This document shows, piece by piece, positions 5,222 to 58,213 of a DNA stretch of 64,000 nucleotides (positions within the stretch are counted from its first letter, which is position 1; every line of letters starts with the position of its first letter). The notes under the pieces are model-generated. The model had not been told where the DNA came from. It worked only from the letters and a program-made list of their open reading frames with translations, and searched no databases. This DNA is from Escherichia coli. GTDB lineage: Bacteria > Pseudomonadota > Gammaproteobacteria > Enterobacterales > Enterobacteriaceae. The stretch lies in the NCBI RefSeq assembly GCF_003018115.1, contig NZ_CP027457.1, one strand, 5' to 3'. Both the position numbers and the translations under genes were made by a program.

Positions 5222-5384
5222 ACATGTATTCCCGGTGAAAAAAGACAAAACCCCGCGCACCGGAAAGATGGCGGGGGATTCACGGAGATAATATCTGTCT
5301 GAAATTATTTGAAATGCAGGTATATGCAGCTAATTTGTATCAGCTTATTGGTACAGTACTAAACCTCATCTGACAGTCCGCTCT

Positions 5385-5399
5385 GTGCCAGGAGCGGAC
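5385..5399. repeat. 15-bp direct repeat copy A (GTGCCAGGAGCGGAC) within an 8-bp-stem palindrome GTCCGCTC-tgtgccag-GAGCGGAC
   Basis: Exact 15-mer shared with 6896-6910 in the same orientation; the two copies bracket the HEPN-motif gene and the short tyrosine recombinase gene. Confidence 0.6.
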
Positions 5400-5502
5400 A
5401 TTCCGATATTGAAAAGTAAATTGTCTTGCTGTATTTTTTCAGTCATAAAAATGAATAAGGATTCTCAGATGAGTGAGATATTTGAACTATTCAGTTCTAC
5501 TG

Positions 5503-6219
5503 TCAGTCCTTAAGTTTATTCATAGAAAGCCGCTCTTGGCGTTTAAGCTCATTTAAAGTGAAAAAAGCACATTTATTAGATAAAATATAAATAGTTCCTA
5601 CTAACCGATGTAAGCGCCTCATTTTTTCGGGCATAGAGAATTCAGCATTTTTGACAAACATTAAAGAATCAACCCCAGCAGAGAACATATATTGTAAACT
5701 TTCCATATTAAAAGCCTCTAGTGGATTTACTTCGTTAATATCAATACTATTAACAGACCTCTCTATTTCGAGGTAATCTTCACTTGTCATTGAATAGTCT
5801 ATTTTATGAGCGAATTTATTGCGGATAGAATTCAGCTTAACTAAAGAATTTGCAATTGAGAGAGGTAAACCTAAAGCAACACAGATCTCCAGTTTTGGAG
5901 TAAAATATCGTGATGGTTTAACGAACTGCTCAGTACCAGGCTTCCTAACATTGTTGATGAATACTTCCAAGAAATTCTCAATCAATAGGCTAAGTCTTAG
6001 CAAGACTGATGCTTCGTCATTTATACTTAGTAAAGGTGCAAATTTTTCTGCGTCAAGAAAGAAACCGAGGTCATTATTAATCGCTACATATCCAGTTAGA
6101 TTGTTATTTGACTTCATATTCATAAAAACCTTATCTTGTATATTAGCGGCATATTGTACCATAAATTGAATCGTGGTTTGTTCTAAGAATGGACACAAGA
6201 ACTTCCTCTCCTCACTCAT
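5503..6219 (-). CDS. hypothetical protein with a HEPN-like R-N-x-x-A-H motif (possible Abi-type RNase)
   Basis: AT-rich ORF; motif SIRNKFAH matches the HEPN Rx4-6H signature in its common RNxxAH form. Start uncertain: track starts at TTG 6228, ATG at 6219 (MSEER), or ATG at 6123 (MNMKS, preceded by AAGG). Confidence 0.5.
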   Translation of the reverse strand: MSEERKFLCPFLEQTTIQFMVQYAANIQDKVFMNMKSNNNLTGYVAINNDLGFFLDAEKFAPLLSINDEASVLLRLSLLIENFLEVFINNVRKPGTEQFVKPSRYFTPKLEICVALGLPLSIANSLVKLNSIRNKFAHKIDYSMTSEDYLEIERSVNSIDINEVNPLEAFNMESLQYMFSAGVDSLMFVKNAEFSMPEKMRRLHRLVGTIYILSNKCAFFTLNELKRQERLSMNKLKD

Positions 6220-6265
6220 AAGAGACAACCATACTCAAATCTCCCACATTGCAGGAGATTTGAGT

Positions 6266-6868
6266 ATGAACACGTCACCGTGGAACAAAGACCGTATCAT
6301 CGCCCAAAAAAGACCACTTCAGATATCTCATATCTGGGAGATCCGAATCCGGCTTGAACTGGAAGGTAAAACGCGCGATTTAGCTCTGTTCAATATGGCC
6401 CAGGACAGTAAGCTTCGAGGCTGTGATCTGGTCAAACTCAAAGTATCGAATGTGGCATATGGTAGCTCGGTTTCAAGCAGAGAAACGGTGTTGCAACAAA
6501 AAACCGGTAACCTTGTGCAATTCGAGATAACCAAAGGGACAAGAGAAGCTGTTGCTGCATTGATAAAGCTTGGCAATTTGCACAGTAAAGACTTCTTGTT
6601 TCGGTCTCGGGTCGGAACTAATCGGCACATATCAACCCAGCAATACAGCCGAATTTTTCATGGGTGGGTAGAAAAGCTTGGTCTCGAAGCTTCGCTGTAC
6701 AGCACACAATCCATGAGAAGAACAAAACCTTACCTAATCTACAAGAAAACCAAGAATCTCCGGATCATCCAACTTCTGTTGGGTCATAAGAAACTGGAAA
6801 GCACGATCCGTTATCTGGGCATTGAAGTCGATGATGCGTTAGAGACCTCTGAATCGATTGAAGTCTAA
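6266..6868 (+). CDS. short (~200 aa) tyrosine recombinase, catalytic domain only (FimB/FimE-sized)
   Basis: C-terminal LLGHKKLESTIRYLGIE (His...Tyr box), upstream Arg and HSMRRT boxes; start at ATG 6266 preceded by AGGAG at 6254-6258. Confidence 0.7.
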   Translation: MNTSPWNKDRIIAQKRPLQISHIWEIRIRLELEGKTRDLALFNMAQDSKLRGCDLVKLKVSNVAYGSSVSSRETVLQQKTGNLVQFEITKGTREAVAALIKLGNLHSKDFLFRSRVGTNRHISTQQYSRIFHGWVEKLGLEASLYSTQSMRRTKPYLIYKKTKNLRIIQLLLGHKKLESTIRYLGIEVDDALETSESIEV

Positions 6869-6895
6869 GGTTGTCAGAGCTGCAATAGCAGCCCC

Positions 6896-6910
6896 GTGCC
6901 AGGAGCGGAC
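6896..6910. repeat. 15-bp direct repeat copy B (GTGCCAGGAGCGGAC)
   Basis: Exact match to 5385-5399, same orientation, 28 nt past the recombinase stop codon. Confidence 0.6.
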
Positions 6911-7026
6911 CTAACTAAGTTCATACAACATTGATTATTGAAGATTAGGTCAGAAATAAATACTTTATTTTGATAATTTAGTTACGTTAGAACACCGCAA
7001 TGTACAACGTAAAAATGAGGAATAAT

Positions 7027-8388
7027 ATGACTCGGAGTGAAATAAACGTCTGGGATGAGAGAAGAGGTACCAATAGTCATCGAGTGGAGGAGATTCGATC
7101 TGAAGCTCAGCACGACCTTTCTCGATTGATTCACTCGTCTGCTTTCAGACGATTACAATCCAAAACACAGGTTCTTGGTCTGGGTGAAAGTGATTTCTAC
7201 CGCACACGACTGACTCATTCTATGGAAGTCGCACAAATCGGTTCAGGTCTTCTTGCTAAGTTGAAAATAAAATATAAAGGTAAAGAGCAAGAGCAATTTT
7301 TACCAGATAACGCTCTTATGCAGGCAGTATGTCTCGCACATGATATTGGACATCCTCCATTTGGTCACGGCGGTGAGGTAGCTCTTAACTACTGTATGCA
7401 GGATTACGGTGGTTTTGAAGGAAACGGTCAGACGCTTCGCATTCTCTCGAAACTAGATAAGTATACCTTAGAACACGGACTCGATCCTACACGCAGACTT
7501 CTGCTAGGCATACTGAAATATCCGGTTAAATACTCGGAGCTAGTGGTTACAAAAGACAGAATCCCGGTCACTATCGGATCACCAAACTGGCTCTTTAAGT
7601 CATCTGATTTTAAACCTCCAAAATGCTATCTAGATTCAGAATGCGATGTTGTAAAATTTGCTCTCTCACCATTTACTGAACAGGATCGGAGGCTTTTTAC
7701 TTCCGTTGAAGATGGTCAAACTAAATCCGATCATAAAAAAGCTTCTTATAAAGCTCTCGATACAACTATAATGGATCTTGCCGATGAAATTTCGTATTCG
7801 CTGCACGATTTGGAGGATGCTATTTCTCTCGGAATGGTGACACGAGAAATGTGGATGGAGCATTTCAGTGAACATGAAACCCTATTTACTAACTGCCATG
7901 GAAAAATATTTTCCGAAACATGCCAATCTGTAGCGGATAGCCTTTTTGGTGAAAGTTACAAGAGAAAAGAGTGCATCGGGATGCTGGTTCACCTGATGAT
8001 TACAAGCGTTGAGCTTATTACAAAGAATCCAGCATTCGAATGTGGCATGCTCAAATATAATGCGGTCCTTCCGGAAGCGGTCGAAGCACTACGGTTGAAA
8101 ATTTTCAAACTGGTCAAAAATAAAGTAATTAAGCATGAAAATGTACAGCAGCTTGAATTCAAGGGACAAAAGTTGATTGTTGAGCTCTTCGGTGTGTTGG
8201 CGAACGATCCGTGTCGGTTTCTACCTGCCTCAACGAGGGAAATTTACGAGCGGCAGACTAGCTTAGACAAGAAGGCTGGTATGCGAGTCATTTGCGACTA
8301 TGTTTCAGGGATGACTGATGACTATGCAACAAAGCTTTATGAGAAGATCCTTATTCCACGCAAAGGGTCTATTTTTGACCATCTCTAA
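7027..8388 (+). CDS. dGTP triphosphohydrolase-like HD-domain protein (candidate anti-phage dGTPase)
   Basis: HD motifs RLTHSMEV, HDIGHPPFGH, DLADEISYSLHDLEDA, YVSGMTDDYA; alignable by eye to E. coli Dgt but AT-rich and shorter (453 aa); start at ATG 7027 with GAGG six nt upstream. Confidence 0.8.
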   Translation: MTRSEINVWDERRGTNSHRVEEIRSEAQHDLSRLIHSSAFRRLQSKTQVLGLGESDFYRTRLTHSMEVAQIGSGLLAKLKIKYKGKEQEQFLPDNALMQAVCLAHDIGHPPFGHGGEVALNYCMQDYGGFEGNGQTLRILSKLDKYTLEHGLDPTRRLLLGILKYPVKYSELVVTKDRIPVTIGSPNWLFKSSDFKPPKCYLDSECDVVKFALSPFTEQDRRLFTSVEDGQTKSDHKKASYKALDTTIMDLADEISYSLHDLEDAISLGMVTREMWMEHFSEHETLFTNCHGKIFSETCQSVADSLFGESYKRKECIGMLVHLMITSVELITKNPAFECGMLKYNAVLPEAVEALRLKIFKLVKNKVIKHENVQQLEFKGQKLIVELFGVLANDPCRFLPASTREIYERQTSLDKKAGMRVICDYVSGMTDDYATKLYEKILIPRKGSIFDHL

Positions 8389-8449
8389 CACGGTAAGAAT
8401 GATACTCTGAGTTCAATTGACCTATAAACATTAACCAAGGCATCTACCA

Positions 8450-8470
8450 GGGGGGATATCAAATCCCCCC
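8450..8470 (+). terminator. GC-stem hairpin downstream of the dGTPase-like gene
   Basis: GGGGGGAtatcaaaTCCCCCC inverted repeat about 60 nt after the stop codon; the T-tract is weak. Confidence 0.35.
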
Positions 8471-9414
8471 ATTCTGAATTTGTTCATGCAGAATCGGTGA
8501 ACGTTCTCATCTGAGCGTTAAACGCCAATAATCATTGATCTACACTGATCATTAATACACCTTAATACCATTAGCGTCTTACTCCGTTATGAGAACAAAC
8601 GCGAACTTCCGCTGTTCGCTCAAAGCAGACCATTCGCTCAGTTAACGCATCAGTGTCGTGCTAGAAGTAGAAGTGGTTAACAACAATGTGAGTTAATCAA
8701 CGGAGAGCAGGTCAACTCTAACCTGTATCAAAAAACAAATGTGTCATAAAGATGCCGCATGCCTTAATTTGAGTATAATTGAGACGGAAGTAGACGGTTT
8801 ATGACTAGATATTGTTGATATATAGCTATTTGAAGAGTTGTAGCGCAAGCGCATAGCCCAAACTAATAACGCTACGCCCCTTATCAAAGAGCGGCAACGA
8901 TGCACAGCTCGCACGAGACAATATTCGCACAAGAAATCAGGTTCGGAAATAACCAGCTCTGGCATGGCGGGGAGAGTATCAATGGTCAGGCTTTCGGTAA
9001 GATGCGGCGGGATGAGGTCGGCGTGGGTTACAGCAGTACAAGGTCGCCCACAGAGGGTAAGCCACAGCGTGGAATCCTCGGTTTCTATCAGGGATTCGGC
9101 GAAGCGGGCGCAGTTGTCGACCAAGACGATGAAATCCATTGTGGCATTATAAGGGAACGAACAATAGATCGAGTAAATCGCAGTCAGGGACAAGGATTGT
9201 AGTCATAGAGAAGTCTCCTGTAACGGTTTTCAGGAGGCTAATCCCGACGCCTGATTTCGCAGGCGCGGAAAGAGAGGATACTGCGACCATTAATCCGCCA
9301 CAAGTCATTTACGTACATAAATCGCGCAGTCAGATCCGACTCCCACTGTAGTTCTTGAACTTGATACCACATTTAGCTAATTTAGCTAAATTATCCAGTA
9401 TACCAGTGGTTGCC

Positions 9415-9660
9415 ATGAATATGAATGAAGATGAGATTTATCGCCATATCCGGCAGGCACTTTCCAGTGCGCCGCGTAACCAGTACACCGTCGAGCTACA
9501 CCTGCAAATGATTAAATATGCCGACGAACTGGAACACATTACGGCAAAAGCCTTTTGCGAAGGCACCGGTCTGAGCCAGAGCCTCGGTACCGAATTCAGC
9601 AAAATGCGTAACTTAACCCGTCGGTTGAAGGCCGCCGGTCTGAATACCGATCTGCTGTAA
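9415..9660 (+). CDS. small hypothetical protein immediately upstream of hsdM
   Basis: ORF 9355-9660 has protein-like composition but no convincing Shine-Dalgarno before TTG 9355 or ATG 9415/9421; ends 40 nt before hsdM. Confidence 0.3.
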   Translation: MNMNEDEIYRHIRQALSSAPRNQYTVELHLQMIKYADELEHITAKAFCEGTGLSQSLGTEFSKMRNLTRRLKAAGLNTDLL

Positions 9661-9699: not shown

Positions 9700-12138
9700 A
9701 TGGCTATCAAAAAAACCGAACTCTATTCTTCCCTGTGGGCAAGCTGCGACGAACTGCGTGGCGGGATGGACGCCAGCCAGTACAAAGACTATGTACTGAC
9801 CCTGCTGTTTATGAAGTACGTTTCCGATAAGTATAAAGGCGATCCTTACGGGATGATCGTGATACCCAAAGGAGCCAGCTTTGACGATATGGTTGCGCTG
9901 AAAAATGACAAAGAGATCGGCGACAAAATCAACAAAATCATCCACAAGCTGGCGGAAGAGAACGGCCTGAAGGGCGTCATCGACGAAGCCGACTTTAACG
10001 ACGAAGATAAGCTCGGCAAAGGCAAGGAAATGATTGACCGCCTGAGCAAGCTTGTCGGTATCTTTGAAGGGTTAGATCTCTCCAGCAACCGGGCCGAAGG
10101 CGACGATCTGTTGGGCGATGCCTATGAATATCTGATGCGTCACTTCGCAACCGAATCCGGCAAGAGTAAAGGGCAGTTTTACACTCCGGCGGAGGTGTCA
10201 CGTATTCTGGCGAAGGTGATTGGTATTACTCCCGATACGCCGCGAGATGCAACGGTTTATGACCCAACCTGTGGCTCTGGTTCGCTGCTGTTGAAAGTGA
10301 ATGATGAAGCCCGGCGCGGACTATCGATTTTCGGCCAGGAGATGGATAACGCTACCAGTGCACTGGCGCGGATGAACATGATTCTGCATAACAATGCCAC
10401 CGCGAAAATCTGGCAGGGTAATACGCTGAGCGATCCGCAGTGGAAAGAGGCGAACGGCAAACTGAAAGCCTTCGATTTTGCCGTGGCGAACCCGCCTTTT
10501 TCCAATAAAAACTGGACCAACGGGTTGACGCCGAAAAAAGATCCGTTTGAACGCTTCGGCTGGGGCATTCCGCCGGAGAAAAACGGCGATTATGCTTTTT
10601 TGCTGCATATCATTAAAAGCCTGAAAAGTACCGGCAAAGGCGCGGTGATCCTGCCCCATGGCGTACTGTTTCGCGGTAACGCCGAGGCAAATATCCGTGA
10701 AAATCTAATCAAGCAGGGCTATATCAAAGGCGTTATTGGTTTGCCGGCCAACCTGTTTTACGGCACCGGCATCCCGGCGTGCATTATTGTGATTGATAAA
10801 GAGCACGCCCACAGCCGCAAAGGCATTTTTATGATCGACGCCAGTCGGGGCTTTATCAAAGATGGCAACAAGAACCGCCTGCGTAGCCGAGATATTCACC
10901 GCATTGTGGACGTGTTCAACCATCAGCGAACGGTGCCGGGCTACAGCCGGATGGTGCCCTCCAGCGAGATCGCCGGAAATGATTACAACCTGAATATTCC
11001 TCGCTATATCGAGAGCGGCGAGCCGGAAGATTTGCACGATCTGACCGCGCACTTACAGGGCGGTATTCCAGCACGCGATGTGGATGCTTTGCAGGATTAC
11101 TGGCGGGTATTCCCTGCCCTGCGCAACGTGCTGTTTGCTGACGACCGTTCCGGTTACTGTCGGGCGCAGGTGAACGCGCAGCAGGTGAAACCAACCATTC
11201 TGGCACATCAGGAGTTTAAGGATTTTGCCACCCGCAGCCTGCTACCGTTTAAAGCGTGGGTGAAAGAGGCAAGTCTGGAAGAGATTCGCAAAGGTGATAA
11301 ACCCAAAGCGCTGATCCACGATATCAGCGAGATGTTGCTTGTGCAGTACGCCAACAGTGAGTTGCTGAACAAGTACAGCGTGTACCAGATCCTGATGGAT
11401 TACTGGGCTGATGTCATGCAGGACGATGTGTATGTGATTATGCAGGATGGCTGGCAAGCCGCCGCGCAAATCCGCGAGCTTCAACCGGTGAAAGGCAAAG
11501 ATGGCAAAAACATCTGGAAAGAAACGCACGATTTCGAGTTTACCAAACAGCGCTACAAGGCCGATGTGCTACCCCGTTCACTAGTGGAAATTCGCTGCTT
11601 CCCGGAACTGCTGGATACGTTGAACCGCGCGCAGGAGCGCAGTGAAGAAGCCAGTCGTCAGCTAGCGGAACTCATCGAGGAGCAGGCAGGGGAAGAGGAT
11701 CTGCTGGCTGAGGCGAAGAACGATAAAGATAAGGTGACGCAAAAGCTGGTGAATGCCCGTCTGGCACAGTTGAAGAAAACCCCTGCCGACCCAGATGAGC
11801 TGGCAGTGCTGAACCGCTGTCTGGCGCTGATTAAGGCCGAGGCCAGTGCGAAAAAAGCGCTGAAAGCCGCACAGGAAGCGTTGGATCGAGCGGTATTTAA
11901 ACATTATCCCACGCTGGATGAAACAGCGATTAAAACGCTGGTAGTGCAGGATAAGTGGCTGGCAACGTTGCAGGCAGGAATCAAGGCGGAGATTGAGCGT
12001 ATTACCCAGCAACTGGCGTCGCGCGTAAAGGAGCTGGAAGAGCGTTATGCTGAACCGTTGCCAGCGCTTGAAGCCTCCGTTGAGGCGTTGAGCGAGAAAG
12101 TGGCCGGGCATTTGCGGGCGATGGGGCTGGAGTGGTGA
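9700..12138 (+). CDS. hsdM: type I restriction-modification N6-adenine DNA methyltransferase subunit, long form (812 aa)
   Basis: N-terminal HsdM signature LWASCDELRGGMDASQYKDYVLTLLFMKYVSD, AdoMet motif DPTCGSGSLL, catalytic NPPF; about 300-aa C-terminal extension rich in charged/coiled-coil-like residues. Confidence 0.95.
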   Translation: MAIKKTELYSSLWASCDELRGGMDASQYKDYVLTLLFMKYVSDKYKGDPYGMIVIPKGASFDDMVALKNDKEIGDKINKIIHKLAEENGLKGVIDEADFNDEDKLGKGKEMIDRLSKLVGIFEGLDLSSNRAEGDDLLGDAYEYLMRHFATESGKSKGQFYTPAEVSRILAKVIGITPDTPRDATVYDPTCGSGSLLLKVNDEARRGLSIFGQEMDNATSALARMNMILHNNATAKIWQGNTLSDPQWKEANGKLKAFDFAVANPPFSNKNWTNGLTPKKDPFERFGWGIPPEKNGDYAFLLHIIKSLKSTGKGAVILPHGVLFRGNAEANIRENLIKQGYIKGVIGLPANLFYGTGIPACIIVIDKEHAHSRKGIFMIDASRGFIKDGNKNRLRSRDIHRIVDVFNHQRTVPGYSRMVPSSEIAGNDYNLNIPRYIESGEPEDLHDLTAHLQGGIPARDVDALQDYWRVFPALRNVLFADDRSGYCRAQVNAQQVKPTILAHQEFKDFATRSLLPFKAWVKEASLEEIRKGDKPKALIHDISEMLLVQYANSELLNKYSVYQILMDYWADVMQDDVYVIMQDGWQAAAQIRELQPVKGKDGKNIWKETHDFEFTKQRYKADVLPRSLVEIRCFPELLDTLNRAQERSEEASRQLAELIEEQAGEEDLLAEAKNDKDKVTQKLVNARLAQLKKTPADPDELAVLNRCLALIKAEASAKKALKAAQEALDRAVFKHYPTLDETAIKTLVVQDKWLATLQAGIKAEIERITQQLASRVKELEERYAEPLPALEASVEALSEKVAGHLRAMGLEW

Positions 12139-13445
12139 TGGTGGATTTAATGGTGAATGAGCAACGATCAGGTACGGCGGGGAAAGATGTGCCTGCGGGG
12201 TATAAGCTGACTGAGGTGGGGGTGATTCCTGAGGATTGGGTAGTAATCTCTATTGATGACTGTACAACCAAAGTTGGTAGTGGAAAAACACCAACTGGTG
12301 GAGCATCTGTTTATATTGATAGCGGACGCCCTTTTGTCCGTAGCCAAAATGTTGATTGGGGAAGATTAGATCTCGCCGATGTCGTACATATTACAGATGA
12401 AACCCATAACACATTCTCTGGTTCTGAAATTCAGCAAGATGATGTTTTACTCAACATAACGGGAGCATCTATCGGCCGATGCGCTAAAGCTGATTTTAGG
12501 GTTATAGGTGGTAATGTTAACCAACATGTTTGCATCATCAGAACAGAGGCAAAAAAACTCTCCCCATCCTTACTGGTTGAATTAATCAATTCAAATTATG
12601 GACAAAACCAGATTGATAGTTATCAAGCCGGAGGAAACAGAGAAGGACTGAATTTTTCTCAAGTTAAAAATCTTAAGTTTGCTATTACACCAAACTCCCT
12701 TGAACAAACGGAAATTGTCAGAACATTAAATGATATTAATGCATTCACTCTCGCTCTGGAAAACTTAATTGCTAAAAAACAGGCCATAAAAGCCGCTGCT
12801 ATGCAACAACTACTCACCGGTAAAACCCGTTTGCCGCAGTTTGCGTTGCGCAAAGATGGATCTGCTAAGAGATATAAAAAGAGCAAGTTGGGGGAGACTC
12901 CAGAAGATTGGGCAGTTAATAATATTGGAGATTTATTCTCCATTACCGCAGGAGGAGATTTAAGACAGTCTGAATTCTCTAATATTCAATCTGAAAAACA
13001 TCTTTACCCTATTTATTCCAATGCAATTAGTCATTATGGTTTATATGGCTATTGCCAGAGTTATGATTATGTTGGTGACTATCTAACAATCACTGCGAGG
13101 GGAGGAATCGGCCATGCCGTGGCAAGAAAAGGAAGATTCTGTGCAATTGGACGATTATTAGTTCTTAGTCCAAAAGGAGATTCAAACGTAAAATTTTATG
13201 AAGGGTATATAAACCAATACTTATCATTTGCAAATGAGAGCACTGGAGTCCCTCAACTTACAGCTCCTCAAGTTGCAAAATATCCGGTTGTTTCCCCATG
13301 CATTGAAGAACAAACCGCCATCGCCACCATCCTCTCCGATATGGACAAGGAAATTCAGACCCTGCAACAACGTCTGGACAAAACCCGTCAGCTTAAACAG
13401 GGGATGATGCAGGAGCTGTTAACCGGGAAAACACGCTTAATATAA
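12138..13445 (+). CDS. hsdS: type I restriction-modification specificity subunit with two target-recognition domains
   Basis: Two AT-rich variable blocks separated and followed by conserved LTGKTRL repeats ([13 protein letters not shown] and [11 protein letters not shown]); ATG at 12138 overlaps the hsdM TGA (TGATG). Confidence 0.9.
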
Positions 13446-13456
13446 AAGGGAAACCT

Positions 13457-14107
13457 ATGACTACAGCGCCAGCCTCAATCCGCAAAAAGCCCTGATCTGG
13501 CGTATCGTCCATCGGGACAATATCCCGTGGATTCTGGACAATGGTCTGCACTGCGGCAACAGCCCGGTGCAGGCTGCTAACTGGATCAATATCGGCAACC
13601 CGGAGCTTATCGGCAAGCACGCCGGACATCCGGTACCTGTCGGGACGGGCGGGACACTGCGTGACTATGTGCCATTTTATTTTACCCCCTTCTCGCCAAT
13701 GCTGATGAACATCCACAGCGGACGTGGCGGCATTAAGCAACGCCCCAATGAAGAGATCGTTATTCTGGTCAGCAGCCTGCGGCACGTGGCAGCACACGAC
13801 GTGCCCTTCGTGTTTACCGACAGCCATGCTTACTATAACTGGACCAACTACTACACCAGTCTGGATAGTCTGGACCAGATCGACTGGCCCATTTTGCAGG
13901 CACGGGACTTTCGCCGCGATCCAGACGATCCGGCTAAATTTGAACGCTATCAGGCAGAGGCGCTAATCTGGCAACACTGCCCGATCTCGCTGCTGGATGG
14001 GATAATTTGTTACAGCGAAGAGGTCAGGTTACAATTAGAACAATGGTTGTTTCAGCGTAATCTAACAATGTCCGTTCACACACGGGCTGGATTGGTACTT
14101 CTCATGA
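13457..14107 (+). pseudogene. darT: DarT-like (DUF4433) DNA ADP-ribosyltransferase gene, reading frame disrupted as read
   Basis: ATG 13457 with AAGGG upstream opens a frame that stops after 12 codons; DarT-like sequence ([46 protein letters not shown]) continues in the -1 frame from about 13459 to 14103; the original frame resumes for the last codons before a TGA that overlaps the darG ATG (ATGA at 14104-14107). Confidence 0.55.
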
Positions 14108-15171
14108 TCACATATACACAAGGCAATTTACTGGACGCACCGGTGGAAGCTCTGGTGAATACGGTTAATACCGTCGGTGTCATGGGGAAAGGCATCGCGT
14201 TGATGTTTAAAGAGCGCTTCCACGAAAATATGAAAGCCTATGCCCTCGCCTGCAAACAAAAGCAGGTGATCACCGGCAAAATGTTCATTACCGAAACCGG
14301 GGAACTGATGGGACCGCGCTGGATTGTTAATTTTCCGACCAAACAGCACTGGCGCGCTGACTCCCGCATGGGGTGGATTGAAGATGGCTTACAAGACTTA
14401 CGTCGATTTTTGATTGAAGAGAACGTGCAATCCATCGCCATTCCACCGCTGGGCGCAGGCAACGGTGACTTGAACTGGCCGGACGTTCGGGCGCAGATTG
14501 AATCTGCCCTTGGCGACCTTCAGGACGTTGATATCCTGATTTACCAACCAACTGAAAAATACCAGAACGTTGCCAAAAGCACTGGCGTAAAAAAGCTCAC
14601 TCCCGCCAGAGCCGCCATCGCTGAACTGGTGCGTCGCTACTGGGTATTGGGGATGGAGTGCAGCCTACTGGAAATCCAGAAACTGGCCTGGCTGTTACAA
14701 CGCGCCCTTAAGCAGCATCAACAGGACGATATCCTCAAACTGCGGTTTGAAGCTCACTATTATGGCCCCTATGCGCCCAATCTGAACCATCTGCTTAATG
14801 CGCTGGACGGCACCTATCTTAAAGCCGAGAAACGCATCCCGGACAGCCAACCGCTGGATGTGATCTGGTTTAACGATCAGAAAAAAGAACACGTTAATGC
14901 GTATCTGAACAGCGAAGCCAGAGAGTGGCTACCGGCGCTGGAGCAGGTCAGCCAGTTAATTGACGGCTTTGAATCGCCGTTTGGTCTGGAGCTGCTGGCA
15001 ACCGTAGACTGGTTGCTGAGCCGTGGCGAATGTCAACCAACACTGGATTCCGTTAAGGAAGGGCTGCACCAGTGGCCTGCGGGCGAACACTGGGCCAGCC
15101 GTAAGTTGAGGCTGTTTGATAATAATAATCTGCAATTTGCCATTAACCGCGTAATGGAGTTCCATTGCTGA
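14104..15171 (+). CDS. darG: DarG-like macrodomain protein (predicted antitoxin / ADP-ribosyl hydrolase)
   Basis: [39 protein letters not shown] with IPPLGAGNG is a macrodomain signature matching my recollection of DarG; as read it is fused in frame to the upstream DarT-like region (track ORF 13567-15171). Confidence 0.7.
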
Positions 15172-15189
15172 GGGTTTAAGGAGCGCCTT

Positions 15190-18100
15190 TTGAGTACCGT
15201 GGGCCAGCGCGAACGCGCCACACAGCAGCGTCTGATTCAGTTTTTTGTTGAAGATTTAGGTTACCGCCATCTGAGTCACCGCACCGGGTACACCGGGAAC
15301 AGCAACATCGACACTAATATACTGAGCGCGTGGCTAAAACGGCGCGGCGTTAATGATACGTTGATCACCCGGGCGTTGCGGCAACTGGATTCCGCCGCCG
15401 CTCTGGGCGAAGGCAAAAAACTCTATTACGCCAATAAAGAGGTCTATCGCCTGCTACGTTACGGCGTGAAAGACAAAGAAGGCGCAGGCGAGCAGAACCA
15501 AACCGTGTGGCTGATTGACTGGGCCAACCCACAAGCCAATGATTTCGCCATCGCCGATGAGGTGACGGTCAAAGGCGAGTACTGCAAGCGCCCGGATCTG
15601 GTGCTGTACGTTAACGGCATTGCGCTGGGCGTGATTGAACTTAAGCGTTCGTCAGTGCACGTCAGCGAAGGCATCCGGCAGAATCTCGATAATCAAAAGA
15701 AAACCTTTATCCGCGATTTCTTCACCACTATGCAGTTAGTGATGGCGGGCAACGATACGCAGGGCCTGCGCTACGGCACCATCGAAACCCCGGAAAAATA
15801 CTATCTGGAGTGGAAAGAAGATAATCCAGGCGACTATACACATAAACTCGACTTTCATTTAAGTCGTCTGTGTAGCAAATCCAGGCTGTTGGATATCGTC
15901 CATAATTACATTGCCTTTGATGTCGGAGTGAAAAAACTCTGCCGCCATAATCAGTTCTTCGGCGTCGAGGCGGCTAAACAACATATTGCCCGTCGTGAAG
16001 GCGGTATTATCTGGCACACACAGGGATCGGGTAAAAGCCTGACGATGGTCTGGCTGGCGAAGTGGATCCGTGAAAATGTGCCAAACTCCCGCGTGTTGAT
16101 TGTGACTGACCGCACCGAACTGGATGAACAGATCGAAAGCGTGTTTATGGGCGTGAATGAAGATATTTATCGCACCTCCAGCGGCAACGATCTTATCGCA
16201 ACGCTCAATCATCCTAACCCGTGGCTCATTTGCTCGCTGGTGCATAAATTTGGTCGTCGCAGCGAAGCTGAAGACAATGCGGCTACCGACGCCTTTATCA
16301 CCGAATTACAGCAGTCCCTGACGAAAACATTCCGCGCCAAAGGCGATCTGTTTGTTTTTGTGGACGAGTGCCACCGCACACAATCCGGCAAGCTGCATAA
16401 CGCCATGACTGCCATTCTGCCGGACGCCCTGTTTATCGGTTTTACCGGCACACCGCTGATGAAGAAAGATAAGAAGAAGTCGGTTGAGGTGTTCGGCCCT
16501 TATATCCATACCTATAAATTTGATGAAGCGGTGGCCGACGGTGTGGTGCTGGATCTGCGCTACGAGGCACGCGATATTGACCAGTATCTGACATCAGAGA
16601 AAAAGGTCGATGACTGGTTTGAAGCCAAGACTCGCGGTTTGTCGAATTTAGCCAGGACCCAGCTTAAGCAAAAGTGGGGATCAATGCAGAAGCTGCTCTC
16701 CAGCAAGTCGAGGCTGGAGCAGATCGTTAACGACATTTTGCTGGATATGGATACCCGTCCACGCCTGATGGACGGGCGCGGCAACGCCATGCTGGTATGC
16801 AGCAGTATCTATCAAGCCTGCAAGGTTTACGAGATGTTCAGCCAGACCGAGCTGGCAGGAAAAGTAGCGATTGTGACCAGCTATCGCCCCGATGCCGCCA
16901 GCATCAAAGGCGAAGAAACGGGCGAAGGGTTAACGGAGAAACTCTCTAAACACGCCACCTATCGTAAAATGTTGGCTGACTATTTTGAACAAAGTGAAGA
17001 GAAGGCCGCCGCACGCATTACCGAGTTCGAGCGGGAAGTGAAACAGCGTTTTATTGAAGAGCCGGGGCAAATGCGCCTGCTTATCGTGGTGGATAAGCTG
17101 CTGACTGGCTTTGACGCGCCGTCCGCCACCTATCTCTACATTGATAAAACCATGACCGACCATACGCTGTTTCAGGCGATTTGTCGGGTGAACCGGCTGG
17201 ACGGTGAGGATAAAGAGTATGGCTATATTATCGATTATAAAGATCTGTTCCGTTCGCTGGATAAAGCGATTACCGATTACACCACGGGCGCGTTTGATGA
17301 TTACGATCGGGACGATGTGGCCGGGTTGCTGAAAGACAGGCTGGAGCAGGCGCAACTGGATCTCGACAGCGCGCTGGAGATGGTTCGCAGCTTATGTGAA
17401 CCCGTCAAAACCCCGCGCAGCCTGCAGGACTATCAGCACTATTTTTGCGGTGAATCAGGAGAGAATCAGACTTCGTTAAACGAAAAAGAGGCGCTGCGCC
17501 TGACATTTTACCAGTGCGTCGCCCGTCTGCTACGCGCTTATGCCAGCATCGCCAATGAAATGCCGGAAGCAGGCTACACTGCCGAAGAGGTAGAGAGCAT
17601 TCGCGCCGAAGTCGCTGAATTCGAAAAACTGCGCTATGAGATTAAGCTGACCAGCGGCGATCTTCTGGATATGAAGCGCTTTGAACCCGCTATGCGTCAT
17701 TTACTGGATATGTATGTTCGCGCCGATGATAGCGAAGTGCTGATGGATTTTGAAGAGTTAAGTCTGATTGAACTGATTGTCGAGAAAGGCTTGGCGGCGA
17801 CCGTCGCCCTGCCGGATGATATCCGTAATAATCAGGATGCGATGGCGGAAACCATCGAAAACAACGTGCGCAAAACCATCGTGGATGAAAACCCGGTTAA
17901 CCCAAAATACTATGGACGCATGTCGCAGCTGCTGGATGAACTGATTACCCTTCGCCGACAAAATGCGCTCAATTATCAGCAGTATCTGGAACGTATCCGC
18001 GATTTGTGTAAACAAGTCATCCGCCCGGAGCAAACCGCCGGAGCGTGCTACCCTGCCACCATGGATACACAAGCAAAGCGCGCCTTCTATGATAACTTCG

Positions 18101-18285
18101 GCCACGACGAGGTACTGGCGACCCGCATAGATACGACGATTCGCTATACCAAAAGGGCAGAGTGGATTGGCGATCGTTTTAAAGAACGGGAAATTGCCAA
18201 CGCATTACGTGAAGAGACCGCCAGCTATAATATTGATATTGATGAGGTGATAGCGCTTGCCCGTCAGCAGAAGGAATATCACTGA
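15190..18285 (+). CDS. hsdR: type I restriction-modification restriction subunit (SF2 helicase/nuclease)
   Basis: 1031 aa; helicase motifs HTQGSGKSLT, VFVDECHRTQ, FIGFTGTP; apparent TTG start at 15190 with AAGGAG eight nt upstream. Confidence 0.93.
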   Translation: MSTVGQRERATQQRLIQFFVEDLGYRHLSHRTGYTGNSNIDTNILSAWLKRRGVNDTLITRALRQLDSAAALGEGKKLYYANKEVYRLLRYGVKDKEGAGEQNQTVWLIDWANPQANDFAIADEVTVKGEYCKRPDLVLYVNGIALGVIELKRSSVHVSEGIRQNLDNQKKTFIRDFFTTMQLVMAGNDTQGLRYGTIETPEKYYLEWKEDNPGDYTHKLDFHLSRLCSKSRLLDIVHNYIAFDVGVKKLCRHNQFFGVEAAKQHIARREGGIIWHTQGSGKSLTMVWLAKWIRENVPNSRVLIVTDRTELDEQIESVFMGVNEDIYRTSSGNDLIATLNHPNPWLICSLVHKFGRRSEAEDNAATDAFITELQQSLTKTFRAKGDLFVFVDECHRTQSGKLHNAMTAILPDALFIGFTGTPLMKKDKKKSVEVFGPYIHTYKFDEAVADGVVLDLRYEARDIDQYLTSEKKVDDWFEAKTRGLSNLARTQLKQKWGSMQKLLSSKSRLEQIVNDILLDMDTRPRLMDGRGNAMLVCSSIYQACKVYEMFSQTELAGKVAIVTSYRPDAASIKGEETGEGLTEKLSKHATYRKMLADYFEQSEEKAAARITEFEREVKQRFIEEPGQMRLLIVVDKLLTGFDAPSATYLYIDKTMTDHTLFQAICRVNRLDGEDKEYGYIIDYKDLFRSLDKAITDYTTGAFDDYDRDDVAGLLKDRLEQAQLDLDSALEMVRSLCEPVKTPRSLQDYQHYFCGESGENQTSLNEKEALRLTFYQCVARLLRAYASIANEMPEAGYTAEEVESIRAEVAEFEKLRYEIKLTSGDLLDMKRFEPAMRHLLDMYVRADDSEVLMDFEELSLIELIVEKGLAATVALPDDIRNNQDAMAETIENNVRKTIVDENPVNPKYYGRMSQLLDELITLRRQNALNYQQYLERIRDLCKQVIRPEQTAGACYPATMDTQAKRAFYDNFGHDEVLATRIDTTIRYTKRAEWIGDRFKEREIANALREETASYNIDIDEVIALARQQKEYH

Positions 18286-19001
18286 TGCCAATCATGCAAA
18301 TAGGCTCGTTACACTTGCTGGTCAACCGTAAGGCGATTAAGAATCTGCATATCAGCGTGCTGCCGCCTGATGGCAAAGTCCGCGTTTCAGCGCCGGAACA
18401 TATGACGGAGACGGCGATTCGTATGGCGGTTGCTTCACGCTTTCGCTGGATCAGAAAACAGCAGCAGGATTTCGCCAGACAGCCTCGTCAATCAGAGAGG
18501 GAAATGGTCAGCGGAGAGTGCCACTATCTTTGGGGCCGAAGATATCGCCTACTTGTGATTGAGCGTCACGGGCGTCACGAAGTAAAAGTTGCGGGAAATA
18601 ATAAGCTCCAGCTTTATGTTCAACCGGGAACCCGTGATGAAAATAAGGCATTGGCGTTAAGTGAATTTTATCGACATGAACTAAAACAGCAGGTGGCTAA
18701 GCTTCTACCTGAATGGCAGGACCGAATCGGTGTTCCCCTAACATTCTGGGGCATCAAAAAGATGAAAACCTTTTGGGGCACCTGTAACACTACAACAAAA
18801 CGAATCTGGCTCAATCTGGAGCTAATTAAGAAGCCGCCGGAGTGTCTGGAGTATATTCTGGTGCATGAACTGGTTCATCTTCTGGAACGTCACCATAATG
18901 CTCGCTTCCGGTTGCATATGGATCGGTTTATTCCTGACTGGCGTGAGCGTCGGGATTTGTTAAATAATATGCCGTTAGCGTTTGAGGCATGGGAGTATTG
19001 A
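18285..19001 (+). CDS. HExxH zinc metallopeptidase (M48/DUF45-like) coupled to hsdR
   Basis: HELVHLLE motif; ATG overlaps the hsdR stop (TGATG at 18283-18287). Confidence 0.8.
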   Translation: MPIMQIGSLHLLVNRKAIKNLHISVLPPDGKVRVSAPEHMTETAIRMAVASRFRWIRKQQQDFARQPRQSEREMVSGECHYLWGRRYRLLVIERHGRHEVKVAGNNKLQLYVQPGTRDENKALALSEFYRHELKQQVAKLLPEWQDRIGVPLTFWGIKKMKTFWGTCNTTTKRIWLNLELIKKPPECLEYILVHELVHLLERHHNARFRLHMDRFIPDWRERRDLLNNMPLAFEAWEY

Positions 19002-55462: not shown

Positions 55463-56680
55463 CTAAGCGAATTCCTTAGTGTTTTTAGCAAGTTGAGACA
55501 TCACATAATCCGCCCATGCCTGCATCATCGGTACACGCTGCTCCAGTAGATCAGTACGATGATATGCCGCCTCAACCTTATTTTTCAGCGTATGAGCGAG
55601 CGCCCTTTCCGCCAGATCCCGCGAATACCCCTGTTCACTACACCAGTCCCTGAATGTTGAGCGAAAACCATGTGCCGTGGCAACTCGCCCCGGTATATCA
55701 CTGATGGCTTTCTTTTTACGCAGAAAACTCGTCAACACCATATCTGAAAGGATCTGCTGCTTTCTGGGAGAAGGAAACACTAGTTCATCATGCAAACCAC
55801 GTATATTTTCCAGAATGTGAATGGCCTGCCGGGATAAAGGAACACGATGCTGTATCCTGGCTTTCATTCTTTCTGCGGGTATAGTCCATATCCGCTTATG
55901 AAAATCAATTTCAGCCCAGCGCATTCCCCTGGCTTCGCCCGAGCGGGTTGCTGTAAGTATCACCATTAATAACAGTGCCCGGGTAACATTATAAGGTTCA
56001 TCTGTATACACACTGGTCGCCACAAAAAGCGGTAACTGCCTCCAGGGCATTGCGGGTTGGTGTTCATCACGTCCTCTTGTCTGCTGAGGAAGCAAATGGT
56101 CAACCACATCAACAGGGTTTGCCACACAAAAACCGTGCGCCCATCCCCACTGCATAACAACATGAATGCGCTGTTTAACCCGGCTTGCCGTTTCTGACAA
56201 GGTTAACCAGACTGGACGCAGTGTTTCTGCCACGTCCGCAGCCGTAATCGAATCCAGCGTTTTTGCTCCCAGTTGAGGAAACGCGTAATTTTCAAGCGTC
56301 GATAACCACTGCCTGACATGCTTTGGATTTTCCCATCCCGGTGACAATTCAGCATGTACACGCCTGGCTGCATCGGCAAATGTTGGGATAACAACTTTTT
56401 CAGCTTCAGCCTTTTTAATCTCCAGTGGGTCATCACCTGCAGCAAGTTGCTCTCGCATTATCCGGGCAGCACGTGCAGCTTCAGCAATACTGACCTCAGG
56501 ATAAGTTCCCAATCCAGCATTACGCCTTTTTTGTGTCACCGGACTTACATAACGAAAAACCCATTTACCCCGCCCTTTTACTGAAGAAGGATGAAGAGTC
56601 AGTCCTGTAATTCCCCCATGGGGCAATGGTTTGTCATCAGGTTTGATATGCCTTGCTTTAGTATCCGTCAATACTGCCAT
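55463..56680 (-). CDS. int: P4-type tyrosine integrase
   Basis: 405 aa; N-terminal MAVLTDTKARHIKPDDKPLPHGGITGLTLHPSSVKGRGKWVFRY, catalytic boxes ...TATRSGEARGMRW..., AHGFRSTFRDW, LAERALAHTLKNKVEAAYHRTD. Confidence 0.9.
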   Translation of the reverse strand: MAVLTDTKARHIKPDDKPLPHGGITGLTLHPSSVKGRGKWVFRYVSPVTQKRRNAGLGTYPEVSIAEAARAARIMREQLAAGDDPLEIKKAEAEKVVIPTFADAARRVHAELSPGWENPKHVRQWLSTLENYAFPQLGAKTLDSITAADVAETLRPVWLTLSETASRVKQRIHVVMQWGWAHGFCVANPVDVVDHLLPQQTRGRDEHQPAMPWRQLPLFVATSVYTDEPYNVTRALLLMVILTATRSGEARGMRWAEIDFHKRIWTIPAERMKARIQHRVPLSRQAIHILENIRGLHDELVFPSPRKQQILSDMVLTSFLRKKKAISDIPGRVATAHGFRSTFRDWCSEQGYSRDLAERALAHTLKNKVEAAYHRTDLLEQRVPMMQAWADYVMSQLAKNTKEFA

Positions 56681-56945
56681 ACGCTAATTCCTGTTACTCT
56701 GGTATGCCATCCAGTATGCCATTAGTCTCTCGCTTCACTAAGAATACATTAGATAATATCGGACAGCAAAAAGTGTAATACATTGTTTATAATGAAATTA
56801 TATAACACCCCCGGATTAAGTCAGATTTATTTCAGGCGGCCCCCCTCACCGCCATATTTAAAGAAGAGCTCGTACGAAAGTACGGGCTTTTTTTTCGTAT
56901 ATTGCACACACCGGGGGGATGAGAATCCCCGACCGGGATACTTAG

Positions 56946-57632
56946 TTAATGCAACGGTTCACTCTTTGTCGCCGCGACTAATGGGCGAATTTTGTCACGA
57001 GTCTCCCAGACCGGAGGGATTTCCTCCAATTTAGTGACAGAAGCTCGTACAAAAGGCACCCGTGCAAGAGTCATAATCGTATCCAACCAACGGTCACGAA
57101 TAATGCGATCCGCCCTTTCATGACTCGGGTCATCCAGCTCAATAACACAGACTATTTTATTGTTCTTCTTTGAAACCAGAACATAATCCATTGCCATGCC
57201 ATTATAAATTGCAAAGAAACGCTTTCTTTCTTCTTCGCTAAACTCAGGTTGTTCTGGAAAGTTGATCAAGCGCCCCAGAGAGACCTGGCAATGGATATGA
57301 CAATAATGTCCAAACCATTTTTCCAGATTATCGAAATACATTTTTTCACAACGCGTGATTAACCACTCTTTTCTTTCCAATAAAATACCTTCGGCAACCA
57401 TTCCCTGAAATAACTCATCTCGCTCTTGCCAACGAGAGTCACGATAGGTTTTCTGCGGTATATAGCTCCTTGTCGACGCCTTAGCGGCAGGGGAAGTTGC
57501 AGATGAAGGGACTGGTTGCGATTTAGCGATGATTACCGATGAGGCAACTTTTCGGAGTGTCAATTTTCTGGCAACAGCAAAACCGGCGATAAATGCAATT
57601 GTCAAACAAGTTACAAAAGACATAAAGCTCAT
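56946..57632 (-). CDS. hypothetical membrane-anchored protein
   Basis: 228-aa ORF with N-terminal hydrophobic segment; no family assigned with confidence. Confidence 0.45.
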   Translation of the reverse strand: MSFMSFVTCLTIAFIAGFAVARKLTLRKVASSVIIAKSQPVPSSATSPAAKASTRSYIPQKTYRDSRWQERDELFQGMVAEGILLERKEWLITRCEKMYFDNLEKWFGHYCHIHCQVSLGRLINFPEQPEFSEEERKRFFAIYNGMAMDYVLVSKKNNKIVCVIELDDPSHERADRIIRDRWLDTIMTLARVPFVRASVTKLEEIPPVWETRDKIRPLVAATKSEPLH

Positions 57633-58178
57633 AATTAATGTTCACCTATCCATGTTGATTATATTTCATTACCAATGTTACTCGCTGAAGCGTGTTACAT
57701 GCCAACAATGCAACGATCAATATATAGTTAGTATCATGTTTTGATTATTACAACCATCCCTATTTAGCCATTGCGGCTTGCCTTCCACAAAAAAACAACA
57801 ACACACAATATTAGCCAAAGAATTAATTAAGATTAACCTTACATTTATAATATTATCCCTAAAGAATAAATCAGAGGAATATATTCGGTGTTAAACAGTC
57901 AGTCAAAGTATGGCCCATTGTTGATTAAACCTCATAAGCAAAATTGGCACCAGATCTCCTGTACAGGTTGAATGGCCGAAAAAAGATAGGCAGATGCTCA
58001 TTTTTTTGGCTTCTGGAAGAAAAACTCTCCGCGCTGGCAGTATTACACTGGTCTGATGCTATGACGAAAAATGCCTGGTAAGAGTATCTAAACCAGACTC
58101 CAGTTCAGCTTATCAACACCCTCAAAGTCGCCCCCCTGAACGCTAACCTGAAGTGAAAATCTGTTGAAATAAAACAAA

Positions 58179-58197
58179 GCCCGGTTCGCCCGGGCTC
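58179..58197 (-). terminator. hairpin downstream of phoH
   Basis: GCCCGG-ttcg-CCCGGGC inverted repeat; on the minus strand it is followed by a T-rich tract (TTTGTTTTATTT), consistent with a rho-independent terminator. Confidence 0.5.
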
Positions 58198-58213
58198 TGC
58201 ACCGATAATACAC

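Follow-up and report, generated by a model that had tools for sequence, protein, structure and literature searches.

The stretch of DNA analysed here (the window), 64,000 nucleotides of Escherichia coli contig NZ_CP027457.1 (assembly GCF_003018115.1), carries at 7027-8388 a gene for an HD-domain dGTP triphosphohydrolase (dGTPase). Very probably it constitutes a one-gene anti-phage system and belongs to the dGTPase family of Tal et al. 2022. The gene in itself is not new, since RefSeq gives the identical protein the name 'anti-phage deoxyguanosine triphosphatase', and its anti-phage role is supported through family membership. The gene lies downstream of a small tyrosine recombinase and is flanked by short palindromic sites, which led us to a second and more tentative proposal, namely that it is one cassette of a site-specific exchange system.

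7027-8388, plus strand: anti-phage dGTPase as assigned from family models and an active-site alignment, 453 amino acids (aa)

The open reading frame (ORF) listed by program spans 7000-8388 on the plus strand. The ATG at 7027 has the sequence GAGGA 6 nt upstream, and this is also where RefSeq starts the 100% identical gene of E. coli 2014C-4135, giving 453 aa. The predicted product scored 560.5 bits with the NCBIfam model NF041026 (antiphage_dGTPase; cut-off 400), covering profile positions 1-424 of 425, whereas the housekeeping Dgt-type model NF003429 (PRK04926) gave 149.3 bits against a cut-off of 405 and so stayed below its equivalog threshold; none of the housekeeping equivalog models in NCBIfam reached half its cut-off. 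The PADLOC dGTPase model PDLC02374 gave 478 bits. The best match among solved structures was PDB 9P8W (E 1e-152, 512 bits), the defence dGTPase of Shewanella putrefaciens CN-32 (Sp-dGTPase) that serves as comparison structure in the preprint on the Clover system (bioRxiv 2025.07.09.663793), with E. coli Dgt far weaker. Over the full length the protein shares 57% of its aligned residues with Sp-dGTPase (256 of 447 positions) and 68% with the E. coli G177 type (represented by P0032); the values for PDB 7LWZ and E. coli Dgt are 45% and 25% (the latter from BLASTP, with 29% gaps). According to Tal et al. 2022, homologues at least 45% identical to Sp-dGTPase are often found near defence genes and more distant ones are not, and the window protein lies above that level. 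An earlier reading of the DNA made from the sequence alone had taken the gene for a defence-type dGTPase, and both the curated model scores and the identities favour this over a housekeeping Dgt.

The same sequence-only reading had stressed that the HD-domain motifs of dGTPases are all kept and that the protein is shorter than Dgt, and both statements hold. The ORF is intact, with Pfam domains HD (residues 61-133) and HD_assoc (348-439). When the protein is aligned to E. coli Dgt, Sp-dGTPase and two more relatives, each catalytic residue of Dgt finds its match: H64, H105, D106 and D253 as metal ligands, H114 and E117 as catalytic dyad, and also Y257, D261 and E377, with D106 being the counterpart of D101 in Sp-dGTPase. 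At 453 aa against 505 aa the protein is 52 residues shorter than Dgt, mainly because an insertion after the HD motif is absent. The gene had also been called strongly AT-biased. A comparison with phoH and efeB, extended to efeO and efeU, confirmed that its composition is atypical, with 42.2% GC and 38.1% GC at third codon positions (GC3) against 51-55% and 51-61% in these core genes of the window, but the values are not extreme and 'strongly' is an overstatement. For reference, GC3 is about 61-64% in hsdM and hsdR and 48% in the housekeeping dgt. The location between a recombinase gene (6266-6868, plus strand) and a type I restriction-modification operon (9700-19001) is as described.

The distribution of the gene is sporadic. 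Among 5426 complete E. coli genomes, megablast found it in 16, at two loci, against 5424 genomes for dgt, which is not the pattern of a dgt-like orthologue at a conserved position. The annotation by PGAP is always 'anti-phage deoxyguanosine triphosphatase', and the DNA is 97-100% conserved across the 16 genomes and both contexts. A more sensitive search for the whole family returned 90 genomes, the 74 beyond the first 16 being of the G177 type; 64 of the 91 places are on plasmids, and the plasmids among the matches listed are about 95 kb in size. Family members occur on P1-like plasmids, and one is encoded by a 95-kb Escherichia phage. The arrangement of the window is found in five genomes, in a large island at a tRNA-Ser gene (serX) that also holds Ag43, CbtA/YeeU, a contact-dependent inhibition system and IS66 copies. 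The other 11 genomes carry a 97.5% identical copy, which in all three that were examined resides in a Rac-like prophage at ttcA, between replication genes and hokD. The two contexts have only 6896-8607 in common, which covers the gene along with 131 bp in front of it and 219 bp behind it. Relatives with 82-93% protein identity were found in Serratia (beside a ubiquitin-like defence system), Enterobacter (in an smpB island), Cronobacter (beside a retron) and Klebsiella (on a phage-like replicon), so that the neighbours across contexts include a type I restriction-modification system with DarG, a Rac-like prophage, plasmids, a retron, Sir2 and ubiquitin-like systems. These comparisons show a gene that is horizontally mobile as a discrete module of about 1.7 kb, and they point to a single-gene system, the common segment holding one ORF and the neighbours differing in every context.

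Classification and distribution together bear on two other views of the enzyme. It could be a second housekeeping-type dGTPase, serving dNTP homeostasis or mutation avoidance, that came to lie on an island by chance. Superfamily and active-site residues are indeed common to it and Dgt, yet every housekeeping equivalog model scores it far below the cut-off, 99.7% of E. coli genomes lack it and practically all of these have dgt, and it always lies among defence or phage genes. We regard this view, already contradicted by distribution and classification, as very improbable. Even less credible, in our judgement, is that the protein represents the dNTPase subunit of a two-gene system of the Clover type, in which the related dGTPase CloA works with a nucleotidyltransferase partner. 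CloA structures gave 79-86 bits compared with the 512 bits of Sp-dGTPase, no CloB-type nucleotidyltransferase gene lies beside the dGTPase in any context examined and the conserved mobile segment is a single ORF; since the partner is absent and the similarity to CloA is low, we do not take the gene for part of a Clover system.

What an anti-phage dGTPase would do can be drawn from its relatives. Tal et al. cloned six such genes, four of which protected E. coli (those of E. coli G177, Mesorhizobium, Pseudoalteromonas and Shewanella). During T7 infection Sp-dGTPase removed dGTP and raised deoxyguanosine, and the D101A mutant lost defence. T7 escaped from the anti-phage dGTPases through mutations in its genes 5.7 and 0.7, suggesting that the enzymes respond to tampering with the host RNA polymerase. 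By analogy, the enzyme of the window would hydrolyse dGTP to deoxyguanosine and triphosphate upon infection, the emptied dGTP pool would stall phage DNA replication, and activation would be linked to interference of the phage with host transcription.

Some observations weigh against an active anti-phage gene. Two of the six homologues cloned by Tal et al. gave no protection, and one of the two, that of Enterobacter sp. ODB01, is nearer to the window protein than any other tested relative (91% identity over the 133 aa available). In addition, we looked for a convincing sigma-70 promoter upstream of the dGTPase and did not find one. The gene might accordingly be a family member that provides little or no protection in its host, being silent, poorly expressed or directed at phages that are rarely met, and would then be a defence gene by ancestry only. 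The decay of neighbouring elements, with a disrupted darT and a recombinase in which a catalytic His is replaced by Gln (H148Q), fits such a picture. Against it stand the intact ORF with all catalytic residues, the high DNA conservation in two contexts and the full-length relatives in other genera, and we consider it improbable. The ODB01 result itself carries little weight: the construct (Tal et al. bioRxiv 2021, Table S5) begins at an internal Met equivalent to Met98 of the window dGTPase and so lacks about 97 N-terminal residues, including the metal-binding H64, and because of this truncation its failure to protect is uninformative for this clade. A functional anti-phage dGTPase remains by far our preferred explanation.

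The surroundings of the gene showed an unexpected order. Two types of 24-bp palindrome, with common arms and different centres (type A, GTGCCA; type B, TCGCTC), separate the genes of a variable region. The A palindrome reads GTCCGCTC-TGTGCCAG-GAGCGGAC and the B palindrome (G/T)TCCGCTC-CTCGCTCA-GAGCGGAC, and the array in the window runs from an A site through a HEPN-like gene on the minus strand, a B half-site, the recombinase, an A half-site, the dGTPase and a B site to a decayed A site 18 nt further on. The features of this array, apart from the dGTPase, are:

5376-5399, plus strand: complete type A site (GTCCGCTC-TGTGCCAG-GAGCGGAC), 8-bp inverted arms and 8-nt centre, left boundary of the variable region
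5503-6219, minus strand: gene for a 238-aa protein, cargo of the first cassette; function unknown, weak HEPN-like signal, GC 34%
6203-6226, plus strand: type B site (TTCCTCT-CCTCACTCAT-AAGAGAC) with a changed inner arm but preserved outer arm and centre, delimiting the recombinase module on the left
6230-6268, plus strand: perfect 15-bp inverted repeat (CATACTCAAATCTCC / GGAGATTTGAGTATG) over the ribosome-binding site and ATG of the recombinase gene, -15.5 kcal/mol, z = -6.9
6266-6868, plus strand: tyrosine recombinase, 200 aa, catalytic domain only (Pfam Phage_integrase at residues 34-184, E 1.7e-14)
6887-6910, plus strand: type A site with inner arm altered and centre and outer arm kept (AGCAGCCCC-GTGCCAG-GAGCGGAC)
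8450-8470, plus strand: likely terminator hairpin (GGGGGGAT-ATCAA-ATCCCCCC) with a T-rich stretch next to it, read from the sequence
8607-8630, plus strand: type B site (TTCCGCT-GTTCGCTCAA-AGCAGAC), closing the dGTPase cassette on the right
8649-8672, plus strand: decayed type A site (ATCAGTGTC-GTGCTAG-AAGTAGAA), end of the array, read from the sequence

As single-stranded DNA the first A site would form an 8-bp hairpin (z = -3.3). The B half-site at 6203-6226 is part of a direct repeat (D1) with 8603-8630, the A half-site at 6887-6910 forms at once the right end of the recombinase module and the left end of the dGTPase cassette, and the decayed A site starts exactly 42 nt after the start of the preceding B site, in agreement with a junction consensus of B, 18 nt and A described below. 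The inverted repeat over the recombinase start probably serves translational control, as its position suggests. The hairpin at 8450-8470, which begins 62 nt past the stop codon of the dGTPase, is probably the terminator of this cassette gene: an equivalent hairpin with altered stem bases lies 3' of the homologues in Serratia, Enterobacter, Cronobacter and Klebsiella. A simple terminator scan of the window did not detect it. The 238-aa product of the first cassette matches phrog_5712, a family of unknown function, at E 6e-46 and Pfam HEPN_RiboL-PSP at E 1e-3 only; it is hypothetical in RefSeq and found no match in PADLOC or NCBIfam. This AT-rich gene is a candidate defence gene.

Strain comparison places the array in a variable slot between the YeeP-like GTPase gene of the island and the helix-turn-helix (HTH) and hsdM genes. 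In HS13-1 the slot holds ParA and two unknown genes, and in GPEC874 a TetR regulator, an amidohydrolase, an NTP pyrophosphatase, SIR2, the same small recombinase, an Abi protein and one more gene. Homology to the islands of other strains stops at 5402-5405, that to GPEC874 stops at 6902, homology with both GPEC874 and HS13-1 restarts at 8587-8590, and that to the Rac prophage begins at 6896 and ends at 8607; these breaks coincide with the A and B palindromes. The Rac copy follows the site-boundary rule on its left side, and in a Klebsiella record (L257) the dGTPase occupies a complete unit of A site, gene, B site and, at the 42-nt spacing, A site. In the Rac-like prophage of strain RM9513 (L003, 13896-16860) we also noticed that the dGTPase precedes another cassette, behind which lies a 112-bp remnant made up of a B half-site, the hairpin and the initial 50 nt of the recombinase gene, while GGTTGTC, a trace of the 3' end of the recombinase module, stands just upstream of the dGTPase. 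This arrangement looks like a circularly permuted recombinase-plus-cargo unit.

The same grammar was found far beyond the window. We scanned IMG/VR with the A site as query, B sites not being part of the query, and collected 120 stretches of prophage DNA (1.19 Mb). B sites nevertheless appeared in strict alternation with A: successive pairs on the same strand were AB in 87 cases, BA in 43, AA in 8 and BB in 3, and in 32 of the 43 BA cases the A site started exactly 42 nt after the start of the B site. The 77 distinct intervals from A to B are 0.45-5.8 kb long (median about 1.4 kb) and hold 107 protein clusters in either orientation. Among 20 cargo proteins searched with PADLOC, six had strong matches (PD-T7-1, ThsB, Old, PtuA, NsnA and PDC-S32) and four more matched at the domain level (TIR, SIR2/STALD, protease and Nudix). 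Where cassettes at least 99% identical stand between unrelated flanks, the identity starts at the A centre GTGCCA and stops at the B centre TCGCTC(A); outside these points, in the left A arm and the right B arm, the sequence goes with the neighbours. Breakpoints within the centres are the pattern expected from exchange inside the centre of a tyrosine-recombinase site, and with their inverted arms, asymmetric 6-8-nt centres and breaks in the centre the sites share the core-site architecture of this enzyme class. None of 240 site-bearing loci carried a dGTPase.

When one genome per species was scanned, the A site turned up in many Enterobacterales and, as dense arrays, in Hyphomicrobium, Nitrosospira, Rhodospirillum and other metagenome-assembled genomes (MAGs). 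In these MAG arrays we observed 11-bp arms (ATGTCCGCTnn / nnAGCGGACAT) and triple junctions with a 45-nt period and the centres GGGTCA, ACCCCC and GTGCCA, the junctions being 0.3-2 kb apart on short contigs. No recombinase homologue was seen in these short contigs, in which no search aimed at it was made. Rfam has no family for the site hairpins.

The recombinase is constant in its placement. It matches the integrase family phrog_216 and has R51, K79, R151, H174 and Y183, and it is present in 895 of the 5426 E. coli genomes in many contexts; the best 120 representative homologues listed, with identities of 71-93%, span several orders of Gammaproteobacteria (Enterobacterales, Idiomarina, Cycloclasticus, Pseudoalteromonas and others). 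No sequence-level relative was found in the PDB at E <= 0.01. In all 12 full copies examined, from six E. coli loci and six viral contigs, the gene lies between a B half-site upstream, with outer arm and centre, and an A half-site downstream, with centre and outer arm; the recombinase gene occupies an enlarged B-A junction. The exact 15-bp arm of the hairpin over the ribosome-binding site and start is present in ten of these 12 copies. Copies in Proteus, Idiomarina and Cycloclasticus also keep the A half-site downstream, a B half-site is recognisable upstream in all copies examined but that of Idiomarina, and in Proteus the hairpin is present with compensatory changes. We also considered that the gene might be a truncated integrase, which is ruled out by the 200-aa form being the norm in hundreds of genomes and many genera. 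The idea that the recombinase module of about 700 bp is the sole mobile unit and has arbitrary flanks was rejected as well, because A/B arrays without the module obey the same grammar.

What is observed is the grammar of the sites, a cargo rich in defence genes, breakpoints that fall in the centres and a recombinase that keeps its place; from this we infer that the recombinase catalyses cassette exchange. Tentatively, we propose that the dGTPase is a cassette of a site-specific exchange system made up of a highly conserved 200-aa recombinase and sites of 24-28 bp with common arms (GTCCGCT / AGCGGAC) and mutually incompatible centres, GTGCCA and TCGCTC and, in Alphaproteobacteria, also GGGTCA and ACCCCC, in which junctions of two or three sites separate the cassettes. 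Through such a system anti-phage genes (the dGTPase, Thoeris ThsB, Old, Septu PtuA and PD-T7-1, among others), and in some lineages also modules for metal resistance, would travel among the prophages, plasmids and islands of Proteobacteria. A literature search by site sequence and keywords found no description of a cassette system of this kind, its coverage being incomplete. The A and B sites would be targets of the adjacent recombinase or of its relatives acting in trans, and cassettes would be excised, inserted or swapped whenever two sites of identical centre recombine. In the window, A x A recombination would release the gene of unknown function together with the recombinase (1.5 kb), and B x B recombination the recombinase together with the dGTPase (2.4 kb). 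Exchange of this type would explain why different defence genes occupy the slot beside the type I restriction-modification/DarG operon in different strains.

Several findings count against this proposal. A recombinase gene is nearby in only 9 of the 120 prophage loci with sites, and the link between recombinase and sites is positional only. In the recombinase of the window Q148 replaces the catalytic His of the HxxR box, which is a His in 110 of 113 homologue representatives, so that the local recombinase may be impaired and the array frozen. The Rac-prophage copy of the dGTPase has no B site after the gene and its left A site is degenerate. These points leave room for a different explanation, in which the palindromes are hairpins like repetitive extragenic palindromic (REP) elements, or terminators, the breaks arise by homologous or microhomology-mediated recombination at such short common stretches, as in the old 'linker' idea of phage mosaicism, and the recombinase has an unrelated job such as dimer resolution. 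The scarcity of recombinase genes near arrays agrees with this, as do the intergenic position and hairpin-forming capacity of the sites and the great abundance of related triple-hairpin clusters in some alphaproteobacterial MAGs, reminiscent of REP and bacterial interspersed mosaic elements (BIME). It is less easily reconciled with the strict alternation of A and B, the fixed 42-nt junction, breakpoints at the edges of the 6-8-nt centres and not anywhere in the 24 bp, or the preservation of the A half-site at all recombinase copies examined in three orders of Gammaproteobacteria, and of the B half-site at all but one. The core-site architecture also speaks against it, as does the identity of the A centre with the GTGCCAA core of the sfx sites of the R64 shufflon. 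We think this explanation doubtful, but it deserves to be kept in mind beside cassette exchange.

Downstream of the array the conserved part of the island carries the following genes:

9421-9660, plus strand: small HTH-like protein before hsdM, a conserved part of the island outside the cassette
9700-13445, plus strand: type I restriction-modification genes hsdM (9700-12138; PADLOC MTase_I, 1429 bits) and hsdS (12138-13445; Specificity_I, 345 bits), as also in RefSeq
13456-15171, plus strand: darT remnant and darG (14104-15171) inside the hsd operon, with PADLOC DarT and DarG matches on one ORF
15190-19001, plus strand: hsdR (15190-18285; PADLOC REase_I, 1633 bits) and a metallopeptidase gene of the M48 family (18285-19001), as also in RefSeq

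The darT gene is disrupted. It has lost its start to an 8-bp deletion, and owing to a 1-bp insertion near the 3' end what is left of it runs on in frame into darG. In other strains with this operon darT is intact; RefSeq lists it as frameshifted here, and DarG is intact in the window. Between the array and the HTH/hsdM genes, in a conserved part of the island, isrK and the a1/b1 targets of C4 antisense RNA (P1/P7-type immunity region) gave matches below threshold at 9205-9279 on the minus strand, and the viral contig L017 has a full isrK and C4 pair beside a cassette array. Window 1-21899 is 99.3% identical to E. coli 2014C-4135, with fewer IS66 copies in the window. At the far end of the island, a full-length integrase gene (55463-56680, minus strand) is followed almost directly by phoH/efeBOU, with the join after about 56915. 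At this boundary (about 55463-59278 of the window) 2014C-4135 has ycdU instead, and the strain of the window seems to lack the pga-ycdT-ycdU stretch.

For the dGTPase gene itself the outcome is of small practical value, as it adds one more allele to a known defence family, although the analysis could help to correct the record for the closest tested construct, ODB01, which is truncated. The wider context may matter more. Outside integrons and the P2/P4 hotspots it is mostly unexplained how single defence genes pass from one prophage, island or plasmid to another, and if the proposed exchange system is real, a compact recombinase with heterospecific sites would be a mechanism that shuffles defence cassettes. 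The succession of A site, cargo and B site would then be a sequence signature with which new defence genes could be found, and the system would be a natural counterpart of engineered recombinase-mediated cassette exchange.

Compared with known enzymes, the gene is closest to the dGTPases of Tal et al. (Sp-dGTPase and that of E. coli G177), with which it shares the curated family, the length class of 453-462 aa, identical catalytic residues, the single-gene organisation, and a sporadic occurrence near type I restriction-modification or other defence genes; the allele group of the window differs in being about 32% diverged from the tested E. coli protein. With E. coli Dgt (PDB 4X9E) it has in common the chemistry of HD-domain dGTP triphosphohydrolases and the active-site residues, but Dgt, at the low identity given above, is longer (505 aa, about 40 residues of which are inserted behind the HD motif) and is a nearly universal gene of the species outside defence islands. 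CloA of the Clover system CloA/CloB is likewise a defence dGTPase of the superfamily, an octamer under nucleotide-signal control (bioRxiv 2025.07.09.663793); the window gene has a similarity of only about 85 bits to it and no CloB partner.

The array resembles integrons (IntI, attI and attC), the chromosomal ones of which store defence cassettes, in having short, promoter-poor cassettes in either orientation with diverse and often defensive cargo, boundaries at hairpin-forming sites and an associated tyrosine recombinase. It differs in that the recombinase is a 200-aa catalytic domain and not IntI, with only weak Xer-type matches of at most 41 bits, and is encoded inside a junction. The junctions hold two or three separate palindromes of 24-28 bp instead of one attC with R and L boxes, the sites (GTCCGCT-N10-AGCGGAC) lack the GTTRRRY core of the attC R''/L''-L'/R' boxes, and neither attI nor Pc is evident. 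The R64 shufflon (Rci, sfx) likewise uses a tyrosine recombinase, and its 7-bp core GTGCCAA matches the A centre GTGCCA(A/G). The sfx arms (TCCGGTACGTGG; arm next to the core, TCCGGTNNNTGG) are, however, unrelated to those of the A and B sites, Rci is much larger, no NCBIfam match links the recombinase to Rci, and sfx sites are inverted and give inversions only, whereas A and B sites are in direct orientation. Finally, pdif modules of Acinetobacter plasmids are accessory modules found in varied contexts between short sites of the tyrosine-recombinase type with conserved arms and variable centres, much as the cassettes described here. The pdif sites are dif-like and use the host XerC/XerD, whereas the A and B sites are unrelated to dif and are accompanied by a dedicated small recombinase within the array.

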